64,000 bases of DNA from Leptospira sp. (GTDB lineage: Bacteria; Spirochaetota; Leptospiria; Leptospirales; Leptospiraceae). Every line of letters starts with the position of its first letter. Position 1 is the first letter of the stretch. Below are positions 7,406 through 10,613 of this stretch, in pieces. The translations under genes were made by a program, and so were the position numbers. Below the pieces are notes generated by a model that made no database searches, was not told the DNA's origin, and saw nothing but the letters and a program-made list of their open reading frames with translations. Location: contig JAWXAQ010000008.1 of assembly GCA_034439575.1 (NCBI GenBank), forward strand, positions 224,001-288,000. Direction: 5' to 3'.

Positions 7406-7523
7406 GCAAACCTTGTTCCCATCTCGGGGCTGTCTCACCTCCGTGTTCGAATGCCCCCGCTTCGCCGTCCTGGCTTCGCTACCGATGGAAACAAGGTTTG
7501 CTAGTCCGGGGAAAGATCGAATA
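7406..7523 (+). repeat. Structured repeat element A, copy 1 (96-bp core 7406-7501 plus conserved tail GAAAGATCGAATA)
   Basis: 18-bp imperfect terminal inverted repeats GCAAACCTTGTTCCCATC / GATGGAAACAAGGTTTGC; internal GGGGC/GCCCC stem; homologous to copies at 8024, 8308 and 10517. Confidence 0.93.
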
Positions 7524-7551
7524 ACAACATCTATATGTCGGTAAAAAAGTT

Positions 7552-7579
7552 TAGACATTTTGAATTGGGTAAGTAAAAT
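7552..7579 (+). promoter_or_regulatory. Putative sigma70 promoter for the aspartic protease gene
   Basis: TAGACA-16 bp-TAAAAT, followed by RBS AGAGGAG (7589-7595) before ATG 7607. Confidence 0.45.
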
Positions 7580-7606
7580 CGATACAGTAGAGGAGTCAGA
7601 GTCTTT

Positions 7607-7987
7607 ATGGGTCTCGTTTATGCTAAGCTAATTCTCTCCAATCCTGTCCTACCAAACCAGAAAAAAATCGAATGTTCAGCTTTGGTTGATACTGGCGCTT
7701 TACATTTGTGTATTCCTGAACATTTGGCAATCCAGCTAGATCTAAAGACTTTGGAAAATAGGGAAGTCACTTTAGCGGATGGCAAAAAGCATTTGGTTCC
7801 ATATGCAGGTCCCGTTCGTATCGAATTTGAAAATCGTAATGCATTTGTCGGTGCTATGGTGCTTGGCGATGAAGTCTTGCTTGGTGCCATACCGATGGAA
7901 GATATGGATGTCATCATTCACCCCGCCTCACGAACGCTACGTGTGAATCCAGAAAGTCCCAATATTGCCATGGCAAAGATCAAATGA
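7607..7987 (+). CDS. Clan AA (retropepsin-like) aspartic protease
   Basis: ALVDTGA catalytic motif, VTLADG flap, VLLGAIPME; 126 aa; strong RBS. Confidence 0.9.
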
Positions 7988-7990
7988 TGT

Positions 7991-8019
7991 GCAAACCTTG
8001 TTCCCATCTCGGGGCTGTC
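7991..8019 (+). repeat. Truncated element A (left 29 bp)
   Basis: Identical to 7406-7434, and followed 4 bp later by a full copy. Confidence 0.9.
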
Positions 8020-8023
8020 GATT

Positions 8024-8143
8024 GCAAACCTCGTTCCCATCTCCCTTCCCTCTCACCTCCGTGCTCGAAGGAAGGACTACGACATCCATGTCTCCGTTAC
8101 CGATGGAAACAAGGTTTGCTTGGCCGGGGAGAAAGATCGAATA
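8024..8143 (+). repeat. Structured repeat element A, copy 2 (variant type; core 8024-8119 plus tail)
   Basis: Same TIRs; internal CCTTCC/GGAAGG stem and GACATCCATGTC hairpin; tail GAAAGATCGAATA. Confidence 0.93.
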
Positions 8144-8210
8144 ACTATATCTTTACTATTAGCTAGGGCACCTCGGATGTGTTATATGGATCTACATTTA
8201 GTTCGATGAC

Positions 8211-8297
8211 CCGATCCCGCTCTCCGCTTCAATCTTTCGCATAACTTTATAAAAGTTGGATTTGTTCACAAAGCGAAAGGATTTACGCTGTGATCGG
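8211..8297 (+). repeat. Structured repeat element B (REP-like)
   Basis: CCGATC...GATCGG and AATCTTTCGC...GCGAAAGGATT nested stems; homologous to the reverse complement of about 10372-10425. Confidence 0.75.
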
Positions 8298-8307
8298 TGG
8301 TGCAGTG

Positions 8308-8403
8308 GCAAACTTTGTTCCCATCTCCCTTCCCTCTCACCTCCGTGTTCGAAGGAAGGACTACGACATCCATGTCTCCGTTACCGATGGAAACAAGGTT
8401 TGC
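8308..8403 (+). repeat. Structured repeat element A, copy 3 (variant type)
   Basis: 96 bp, nearly identical to 8024-8119. Confidence 0.93.
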
Positions 8404-9176
8404 AGAATATAATAAATGATTTAGCAACAGAATTAAAAGGACTAAATGTGTAGATTCTGAAAAGTTCTGCAAAAATTAGTTTATTAGAAAGGCAGATTAA
8501 GGATAGCAGTGCTCGTGATATTGGAATCATCATCCTAGGAACGGAACGTCTAAATCAGCATTCCGATTATGGTGAAAAAGTGATTGTTGTTTCTGATAAA
8601 AAAGTAAATCTACCGGCTGGGCATTTGGATTCCAATTTAGGGAAGTATGTCTATGTCCAAGACGGAGGCAATACTTGTCAGTCCTATACGCTCTTGGGTC
8701 AGATGGTACTAGAGGGAGTTAAATTTCGAGACAATATAGATGCAGGAAGAAAACTTATACACGAATTGACGAGACTGCAATACCAAATGGGAGAAACGGG
8801 AAATATGTCAACGAATACTATCAATGCATACAATAAAAGCCTTTCTGATTTTGGACCGAAGGCGACTAACATCATGGATAAGGAAAGTATCAAAACGACA
8901 GAAGATAAGCGTAATGCGATCAAAGAACAACTGCAAAAAGGCAAGATTGTGAATTCGGGAATGTTTTTGGATGCATCGCCTGCAGAACCAAAATATGATA
9001 AAGATGGTAAGAAATTAGAGCCTAACAAAGGTCATAGAGTAAATATTGTAGGGTTTGATGATGTGAAAGGAGAATGGATCGTAAACGATTCGAATAAAGA
9101 AGGAGAACTCACACGCTATCCGTATGGCGATTATGAGCTTATGAATCGGTGGTCTACTGTCTTGGAGAAAAAGTAA
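8404..9176 (+). pseudogene. 5'-truncated papain-like (C39-like) peptidase domain, probable orphan polymorphic-toxin C-terminus (ORF-track 8580..9176)
   Basis: QDGGNTCQSY (Cys), GHRVNIVGFD (His), WIVNDS (Asp). The frame is open from 8454 with no start until GTG 8580, has an in-frame TAG at 8451-8453, and abuts repeat copy 3. Confidence 0.6.
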
Positions 9177-9971
9177 ATGATAAAAATAATTCTTTTGCTG
9201 TTAATGTCATTATCAATTTTTGCTGATGAAAAAAAAGAACTATCAGATTTAGTAAATAAGATAGAGAAATACAATGAAGCATTCATAAGTGGCCCAATGA
9301 TAATAAGCGAGAGCGATGAAGTCGTGCGATCGGTAAACTATTACATAAAGGAAGGAGATTTTAAGGATTTAATAAAGCTTAAGGAGAGGTCTGAAATAAT
9401 CGAAAAATGGGGTGATCGGCGGCGATGGTTCGTGAGCAAATGGCAGGGCAAAGAACCAGCGATCTACGTGTCTGCTGATTATGTTCCTGCATTTTATAAT
9501 AATGCCATTCAAAAAAATCAAAAACCAACTACCGACTTAAAGGATCATTTTGATTTTTACTTCAAAAATTATTGCGAATTTGACGGCAGTATTGACACAC
9601 GTTATGCGCGAATTAAAAAGATGAGACTGACCTATTACGATGCGCCATATACAGCAGTTAACAATATGATGAATTTCAAAGTCGTAAGTAAATTTAAAAA
9701 AATTGCAAGCTATGATATCGACCTCAAAAATGATGATAAGGTCATCAATGCGATGCAATCTTTTTATCCAATCAAACCGACTACTTTATTTGGTAATATT
9801 TTTGCCATTCAATTGAAAGTGTTAGAAGTCTATCCTGGAGAAAAGAATATGCCCCTGTGCACTTCCGATTATTATATGGGACGCAAAGGTTTAGGTAGTT
9901 ACGAACAAATCTTAGGTGAGATTGATGAACTTCCTGAGTTGAAAGGGAAGAGGAATCCATATTGGAAATAG
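9177..9971 (+). CDS. Exported hypothetical protein, candidate immunity protein
   Basis: ATG directly follows the upstream TAA (TAAATG); signal peptide MIKIILLLLMSLSIFA; no recognisable family. Confidence 0.65.
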   Translation: MIKIILLLLMSLSIFADEKKELSDLVNKIEKYNEAFISGPMIISESDEVVRSVNYYIKEGDFKDLIKLKERSEIIEKWGDRRRWFVSKWQGKEPAIYVSADYVPAFYNNAIQKNQKPTTDLKDHFDFYFKNYCEFDGSIDTRYARIKKMRLTYYDAPYTAVNNMMNFKVVSKFKKIASYDIDLKNDDKVINAMQSFYPIKPTTLFGNIFAIQLKVLEVYPGEKNMPLCTSDYYMGRKGLGSYEQILGEIDELPELKGKRNPYWK

Positions 9972-10350
9972 CTGAGCCTCGCAAAAACTACAATCGTGAA
10001 CACTTTGTTCGTTCAGATAGAATTTTTCGCGAGATATGAAATCCTTCTCCAGAAGCAGATACTCATCTGCAAAACTTAGATTAATATTTAATTAAGCAGC
10101 TCACAAGTGTAAGTGAGATAAAGTTCACAGATAACAGGGCGAGAGACAAATTTATAATCTATTTGCAAGTGTTTAACGCAATAAGATAAAACGCCGCCAG
10201 TGATAAATCCGCAACGACATTACGAGCGAGGATAAAAGCAAATTAATGGTTTGACAAGGTGAGTGAGCAATACGAATCAAATATTAGTAAAACATAAAGT
10301 TATAAATAATTTAATCTACTAGCGATTCGTGTAGAAGAAAAGAACGAGTA

Positions 10351-10425
10351 GGGAACAAGGTTGCTCGCACCAGCGATAGCAGCGGAAATCCTTTGCGAAG
10401 CAAAGATTGGAGCGTATAGCGCAGT
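10351..10425 (-). repeat. Element B plus 14-bp remnant of element A left end (inverted)
   Basis: Reverse complement CGCTATACGCTCCAATCTTT...AAGGATTTCCGCTGCTATCGCTGGTGCGAGCAACCTTGTTCCC aligns with 8218-8322. Confidence 0.75.
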
Positions 10426-10494
10426 CGTTTTTCACGATTAAGTCTCTACCAACTAACATATCCAATGTGCCCACCTCGCTCTAACCAATCCGCC

Positions 10495-10613
10495 TATTCG
10501 ATCTTTCTTCGGTTGACCAAACTTTGTTTCCATCGGAAGCGTAGCCAAGGATGGCGGAGCGGGGGCATTCGAACACGGATGTGAGAGAGCCCCGAGATGG
10601 GAACGAAGTTTGG
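10495..10613 (-). repeat. Structured repeat element A, copy 4 (inverted; core 10517-10613)
   Basis: Reverse complement closely matches copy 1; both terminal bases changed together (G...C to C...G); tail present at 10495-10507. Confidence 0.92.

Follow-up and report, generated by a model that had tools for sequence, protein, structure and literature searches.

The repeat analyzed here was found in a stretch of 64,000 nucleotides (the window) at contig C8:224001-288000 of a metagenome-assembled genome of 4.1 Mb and 37 contigs, assigned to Leptospira by the names of its nearest protein relatives. We are highly confident that it is a genus-wide, strand-specific, structured element, which in this genome was amplified in a mosaic with the Rfam motif Flavo-1. 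The family has spread through water-dwelling Leptospira and is multiplied about thirty-fold in this genome; the public runs that contain the stretch were microbial-mat, groundwater, and wastewater metagenomes, with no RNA run among them. With regard to mechanism, we tentatively favor, with slightly less than even confidence, a reading in which the functional form would be the RNA of the bottom strand, serving as a decoy or handle for a protein that recognizes loop GGA. Selection on a fold rather than on transposon ends is rarely shown for structured intergenic repeats, and the evidence here is unusually clean. Dozens of sub-families with unrelated stems were found, yet their loops are conserved and their strand preference is clear.

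Fold, covariation, and strand preference of the repeat family

An earlier note on this DNA, made from the sequence alone, had reported four full copies of the repeat, and all four were recovered at the same positions (Table 1), three of them direct and 96 nt long and the fourth inverted. Copies 1 and 3 were 72% and 97% identical to copy 2, respectively, and the inverted arms of copies 4 and 1 matched as complements at 91% of 65 nt and 83% of 53 nt. The first of two fragments in the note, 29 nt identical to the start of copy 1, was confirmed; the second also exists, as an 18-nt left arm (89%), but its position is 10345-10362 and not 10351-10364. The 18-nt arm occurred eight times in the window at no more than 3 mismatches, against 0.05 expected, and none of 100 shuffles reached eight. 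Alignment of the copies revealed the common 18-bp outer stem that the note had described, the two sequence types whose differences preserve pairing (GGGGC/GCCCC versus CCTTCC/GGAAGG, and GCC/GGC versus GAC/GTC), and the joint change of both terminal bases in copy 4. Two features had been missed: a conserved tail of approximately 30 nt on the 3' side of the core, present in 24 of 26 genomic copies, and Rfam Flavo-1 hairpins adjoining copy 3 and the fragment at 10345-10362.

The collection of copies by blastn that the note had called for yielded 26 full copies and a few fragments in this genome. A covariance model built from the copies (R1) gave 31 matches, two of which were the opposite strand of a place already counted, leaving 29 distinct places. 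The two types, A and B, differed by paired changes at four pairs of the first hairpin, one pair of the second hairpin, and one pair of its lower stem, and recombinant copies carried one hairpin of each type. Some copies had a bulged base in the left arm, and several started 2-3 nt past a stop codon. The places were clustered: contigs C11 and C35 had five each, C8 had four, and C7, C22, and C30 had two or three; neighbors less than 5 kb apart were co-oriented in 14 of 16 pairs in a tally of the blastn and R1 places.

The scan covered the window's genome (G000), 40 further genomes from the genus, and 73 from the family's other genera; where they must be told apart, genomes, contigs, and loci are given G, C, and L labels. 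R1 detected the element in 17 of the 40 other genus genomes. A second model (R2), built from 75 R1 matches in relatives, detected it in 33 of the 40, and in 6 of the 73 genomes of other genera. With R2 the copy number across species ranged from 0 to at least 35: most species had 1-7 copies, G036 had 29, and G011, G012, and G017 had at least 35 each. Five relatives (G011, G012, G017, G026, and G036) had 10 or more copies. Plasmid and phage collections gave no match to the element. The literature on Flavo-1, Leptospira transposable elements of the miniature inverted-repeat type (MITEs), palindromic repeats, and small RNAs downstream of 23S contained no description of it; supplementary tables (PMC4863578 Table S6, PMC10715090 Table S3) may bear on the question.

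The element, approximately 100 nt long, folds into a three-way junction from which two hairpins and a closing stem, P1, extend. Read on the aligned strand, the first hairpin consists of a base stem, an inner stem, and the loop A-C-N-T-C-C-(N)-T-G-T, the second hairpin has the loop A-T-C-C-Y-T, and the junction strands are conserved. In an alignment of relatives, P1 sequences were unrelated between sub-families while the pairing was kept. Twelve of the 30 pairs changed on both sides among the 26 genomic copies, which none of 500 shuffles reached. Among the 75 copies from relatives, 29 of the 30 pairs did so, the inner hairpins included, and 84% of the cells paired, compared with 61% in shuffles and at most 42% when partners were slid; the alignment of relatives was fitted to the model, which favors structure, and related copies are not independent events. 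All five pairs of the hairpin 1 base stem and all five of hairpin 2 changed on both sides, with many pair types, and loops were more conserved than stems across relatives.

The bottom strand, that is, the complement of copies 1-3 and of the aligned strand in general, was the more stable one under RNA parameters in all 26 copies of this genome and in 69 of 70 from relatives. The mean energies for bottom and top strands were -44.4 and -33.7 kcal/mol in this genome, and -41.2 and -34.3 kcal/mol in the relatives; under DNA parameters the bottom strand was again more stable in all four window copies. The earlier note had remarked that most outer-stem mismatches were wobbles on one strand. Indeed, those of copies 1, 2, and 4 were C.A on the aligned strand, corresponding to G.T on the complement, and copy 3 had a single T.G exception. 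When one sequence was taken per cluster (49 clusters at 85% identity), P1 contained 64 C.A and 10 G.T mismatches, and 33 clusters leaned toward C.A and 1 toward G.T. The mismatches fell at 16 of the 18 positions, with two hot spots near the junction. On the bottom strand, hairpin 1 carried GGA in all 96 elements examined and the loop of hairpin 2 in 91 of them, with further GGA in the junction strands; the mean number of GGA per element was 5.1 on the bottom and 1.25 on the top strand. Covariation and the strand bias in stability bear out the claim that selection acts on a strand-specific multi-hairpin fold, and the covariation of the inner hairpins indicates that more than matching transposon ends is being kept, as the note had supposed.

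A coding reading of the repeats was rejected. Small open reading frames (ORFs) cross them on both strands, but one-base insertions and the two types alter the peptides and leave the pairs intact.

The copy behind the 23S rRNA gene and the RNA reading

In several species, the 23S rRNA gene (rrl) is followed, always at the same place, by a non-mobile copy. Both 23S ends of the complete genomes G003, G013, and G036 had the element 155-350 nt downstream, its bottom strand running in the 23S sense; in G003 and in G013, one 23S end lies behind an inserted island that duplicates the last ~260 nt of 23S. The two G003 copies occupy C1:2921665-2921764 and C1:2615434-2615533. The same arrangement was observed at the 23S ends captured in G002, G019, and G034. 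At all seven rrl loci, a terminator hairpin with a T run preceded the element by 35-42 nt on the bottom strand, and at none of the seven was a terminator found on the opposite strand. A second terminator followed the element within 140 nt at four of the seven loci, and in G003 seven T's lay 3 nt past P1. The rrl copies of G002, G003, G013, and G019 shared a recognizable P1 and differed by paired changes. A second conserved place was found in G008, G015, and G038, where the element starts at a stop codon and fills a 115-nt gap between convergent genes.

Four observations lead us to favor RNA as the functional form. The stems covary around conserved loops; orthologous copies retain their fold where a genome has just two or three of them; at rrl, terminators frame the copies in the appropriate sense; and the exposed GGA loops match what the CsrA protein of L. 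biflexa binds, a GGA hexaloop (PMC8668096). From these we infer action as RNA together with a protein partner. If so, the bottom-strand RNA would form a compact decoy or handle with GGA in each hairpin loop. In the low-copy relatives the element stands at one fixed place, 35-42 nt behind the 23S terminator and in the same direction. In the present genome it has reached 29 places, most of them in co-oriented clusters within variable stretches that adjoin tRNA and rRNA genes, and the dispersed copies would act only where transcription happens in the bottom-strand sense.

Several observations weigh against the RNA reading. G021, G022, G027, and G004 have rrl with no element behind it. Copies behind tRNA genes (L040, L041, L048, and copy 4 of the window) have the top strand in the tRNA direction. 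Across the family, terminator-like hairpins showed no strand bias, following the bottom strand at 14 of 72 and the top strand at 11 of 75 places, and in this genome the upstream neighboring ORF was on the same strand 12 times and on the opposite strand 17 times. A simple scan for sigma-70-like promoters beside the window copies found none. Moreover, a G.T wobble stabilizes single-stranded DNA as well, and the strand asymmetry therefore cannot separate RNA from single-stranded DNA.

As for the protein partner, a csrA gene is present in this genome, and Leptospira is said to lack csrB/csrC homologues (PMC8668096). In the predicted folds, several GGA motifs stand in loops and single-stranded linkers, as is characteristic of Csr/Rsm RNAs. 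The Rfam Csr/Rsm clan gave sub-threshold matches only (TwoAYGGAY 21.9 bits, cut-off 43; RsmY 13.4 bits, cut-off 57), and CsrA binding is accordingly a lead, not a finding. The bolder proposal, that the element would be the missing RNA antagonist of CsrA in spirochaetes, a compact three-way-junction decoy with GGA in both hairpin loops and GGA-rich linkers encoded behind each 23S gene, is improbable. If it were true, the decoy dose would be tied to ribosome synthesis, and in some species the decoy would have become a mosaic repeat that spreads by itself and endows many transcripts with CsrA handles. The element also bears on whether spirochaetes have a CsrA-binding RNA; L. biflexa is non-pathogenic and genetically tractable.

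Two simpler roles were tried and set aside. As a terminator, the element lacks a T run in most copies. As for a promoter in the tail, candidates read by hand on either strand were inconsistent between copies, and the scan described above found none.

Mosaic units and the movement of the repeat

The element is the first half of a mosaic repeat of ~255-300 bp, in which core and tail are followed by a Flavo-1 hairpin. G036 had four near-identical units of ~255 bp with unrelated flanks, each consisting of core, tail, short motif, and reverse-oriented Flavo-1. They shared the same start and end bases and were folded at either end, and neither terminal inverted repeats nor target duplications were seen in the four units. 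The window portion 8024-8305 (copy 2, tail, motif, and Flavo-1) is a 282-bp mosaic unit built in the same way. Core and tail often lay within the Flavo-1 apex in G011, G012, G017, and G036, and the insertion position was the apex or the end of Flavo-1 hairpins, in either orientation. G017 carried a 300-nt unit twice at 99% identity, flanking four ordinary genes; an autonomous parent was sought around the two units, and the search revealed ordinary genes and no transposase. These observations are signs of movement, and the repeat was probably amplified in the window's genome as a mobile mosaic.

Flavo-1 (RF01705) had 33 matches in this genome, 23 of them above the cut-off, and behaves as a dispersed repeat here too. 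Where a Flavo-1 hairpin adjoins a core, it was antisense to the aligned strand in 8 of 10 cases in our tally. Its 65-nt core also recurred many times at 84-94% identity in every relative sampled. The Rfam scan suggested in the earlier note was run: the repeat cores matched no family above threshold, and Flavo-1 was found in the neighboring sequence. The possibility that the cores themselves are Flavo-1 was discarded, as the four 96-bp cores had no RF01705 match even at E up to 10 (cut-off 42 bits).

Table 1. Features of the repeat-rich part of the window, in window coordinates.
Feature	Positions	Strand	Remarks
Copy 1, type A core, three-way junction	7406-7501	+	complement folds better; R2 88.4 bits
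Conserved 3' tail of copy 1	7502-7535	+	
Cargo ORF between copies, clan AA aspartic protease, 126 amino acids	7607-7987	+	TIGR03698 72.3 bits, cut-off 57.35
Left fragment, 29 nt	7991-8019	+	starts 3 nt past the ORF 7607-7987 stop codon
Copy 2, type B core	8024-8119	+	R2 91.3 bits
Tail of copy 2	8120-8155	+	
Short motif	8168-8183	+	seen again past the tail in a number of species; similar to the opening bases of a Flavo-1-type hairpin
Flavo-1 (RF01705) hairpin	8209-8305	-	50.4 bits, cut-off 42
Copy 3, type B core, without tail	8308-8403	+	R2 89.3 bits
Two cargo ORFs, 198 and 264 amino acids	8580-9971	+	no family above cut-off
Left-arm fragment, 18 nt	10345-10362	-	89%
Flavo-1 hairpin of inverted mosaic unit	10365-10430	+	44.3 bits
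Tail of copy 4	10495-10516	-	
Copy 4, inverted type A core, bordering the part syntenic in relatives	10517-10613	-	R2 86.9 bits
tRNA-Tyr and tRNA-Thr	10799-10968	-	context of the repeat-rich variable stretch

In a comparison with eight relatives of the genus, only window positions 10614-12288 were syntenic; the repeat-rich variable stretch therefore begins exactly at copy 4, 185 nt behind tRNA-Tyr. Homologues of the cargo ORFs are present elsewhere in G003, with no repeats alongside. One of them (G003:C1:1256152-1256534) is a copy of the window's aspartic protease gene, 81% identical, which lies ~1 kb from a recombinase homologue (C1:1257459-1258337) and adjoins a 16S rRNA gene, indicating that the same cargo gene travels with these variable stretches. 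At 7991-8023 in the window, at C7 ~101990, and at C35 ~36690, a truncated left arm precedes a full copy, separated from it by G-A-T and one more base, an arrangement that looks like a recurrent junction of two elements. Beside copy 4, positions 10640-10680 (+) resemble the second hairpin and junction (15 nt are 93% like 7464-7478); they fall in the part conserved in relatives, and the covariance models give no call there. Exact ends could not be read from the copy on C33 behind a 645-amino-acid gene, which has no counterpart in G026 (the intergenic sequences, 308 bp in G026 and ~2.5 kb in the present genome, cannot be aligned). Contigs assembled from four public runs gave patchy cover that broke at the repeats, with no empty site and no usable joint.

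A second reading of the selected fold, which we regard as rather unlikely, places it in DNA: the bottom strand would fold as single-stranded DNA in the course of replication or transfer and be recognized by an enzyme that mobilizes the mosaic repeat, in the manner of hairpins at IS200/IS605 ends, REPs, or integron attC sites, and the structure would be selected for mobility and not for the host. The wide range of copy numbers, the near-identical units with unrelated flanks that lack visible inverted ends or target duplications, and the insertion into Flavo-1 hairpins in either orientation are consistent with this, as are the mixed orientation relative to genes, the co-orientation within clusters, and the strand asymmetry; the constant distance behind terminator hairpins could equally reflect target preference. 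Among the enzymes looked for, however, none suited this role. The earlier note had named an HUH (RAYT/IS200-type) transposase, but the Pfam family Y1_Tnp (PF01797) was absent from all 41 genus genomes in a search limited to this transposase family, and its suggested check for a RAYT/TnpA gene flanked by the motif was negative in that no Y1 gene occurs in the window's genome or the 40 relatives. A positive control gave matches in 6 of 14 reference genomes, and three of the 40 Y1-negative relatives are in 3-4 contigs and have many near-identical copies. The repeat thus spreads without the HUH enzymes usually invoked. Nor did any integron integrase exceed the cut-off, and among the five relatives with at least 10 copies a XerA-like recombinase was present only in G036. 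Selection for mobility alone also hardly explains why the fold of the orthologous rrl copies is still perfect in genomes that have no more than 2-3 copies.

It is very improbable that the family is an ordinary MITE or selfish repeat with no selected fold, in which the arms would be the terminal inverted repeats of different parents and the inner compensations inherited block swaps. A survey reporting a median of 154 MITEs per genome in Leptospirales (PMC11602168) speaks for such an origin, and the compensations within this genome mostly reduce to two types and their recombinants, that is, to few independent events. P1 has the look of inverted core ends, but what moves is the larger composite. 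A search confined to the Y1 family among transposases revealed no parent element, and no target duplication was seen. Matching double-stranded ends predict neither the greater conservation of loops than stems, nor the covariation at all pairs of the hairpin 1 base stem and hairpin 2 with its many pair types, nor the excess of C.A over G.T across 16 positions and 33 clusters. The retention of orthologous copies behind rrl likewise speaks against this origin.

The least probable alternative is an integron-like system, in which the repeats would be attC-type sites acted on by the tyrosine recombinase of C11 and the ORFs between them would be cassettes. The C11 array invites the comparison: a 305-amino-acid tyrosine recombinase ends 2 nt before its first repeat, and the order is recombinase, repeat, VapBC-like pair, repeat, repeat, PIN pair and ORF, repeat, ORF, and repeat, the five repeats all pointing the same way. 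Recombinase homologues are found 0.4 kb (G036) and 2.7 kb (G002) from family members, the bottom strand is the folded one, and some copies have a bulged left-arm base. Nevertheless, the recombinase reached 162.2 bits against the integron integrase model TIGR02249 (cut-off 265), in two stretches skipping model positions 179-235, whereas it passed the XerA-type model NF040815 (231.3 bits, cut-off 220). It is also absent from the element-rich G011, G012, G017, and G026; the C35 array has its ORFs in the opposite direction; many copies stand alone or inside Flavo-1; conserved loops with a variable outer stem are the reverse of attC; and the recombinase loci adjoin rRNA genes with duplicated 23S 3' ends, as expected for an integrating island.

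Some features of these loci were recorded apart from the repeat. Near the C11 recombinase, two pairs of an antitoxin-like ORF and a PIN-domain ORF lie between successive repeats (L009 5960-6573 and 7453-8119). XerA-type recombinase homologues, 51-59% identical, were present in 17 of the 40 genus genomes, and the recombinase lies beside rRNA genes (L075 in G002, L074 in G036, L076 in G003, L069 in G013, and L009 in G000 C11). Partial 23S copies comprising the last ~260 nt (model positions 2655-2912) lie a few kb from the intact gene, which suggests that the loci are islands that integrate into the rrl 3' end and restore it.

Comparison with known systems

attC sites form co-oriented arrays, as on the Vibrio chromosome, with small ORFs that include toxin-antitoxin pairs, and the folded bottom strand is the functional one. 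The present element is similarly co-oriented between small ORFs including toxin-antitoxin pairs, and it keeps its structure while its sequence changes; it differs in having no integron integrase and in its many solitary or nested copies. REP/BIME sequences, and REPINs with RAYT, are short structured intergenic repeats that form modular mosaics, occur in clusters, and have stems that differ between families. The present element is also mosaic, clustered, and variable in its stems, but it has no RAYT/Y1 (0 of 41 genomes), its neighbors are co-oriented (14 of 16) rather than arranged as inverted pairs, and its three-helix unit is much larger. ERIC, BOX, and Correia elements are modular repeats, 100-150 bp in length, whose transcripts fold; they are not known to have their own transposase and are shared by related species. 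By description, the present family is set apart from them by its fixed rrl copy and conserved GGA loops.

With Csr/Rsm decoys (CsrB, RsmY/Z, TwoAYGGAY; Rfam clan CL00106), the element shares approximately five GGA per 100 nt in loops and linkers and, at some rrl-linked loci, a terminator after it. It differs from them in being multi-copy and mobile-like.

Flavo-1 has been catalogued for Bacteroidetes. It is, like the present element, a structured, GC-richer, multi-copy intergenic hairpin. The motif is that of RF01705 and of Weinberg et al. 2010 (PMC2864571); in a flavobacterium, its matches were sense or antisense of transcripts with no pattern (PMC9723704). Flavo-1 is a single long hairpin, whereas the present element is a three-way junction with two GGA loops that is physically joined to Flavo-1 or wrapped by it. 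An orphan Rfam motif thereby gains a partner domain in spirochaetes.

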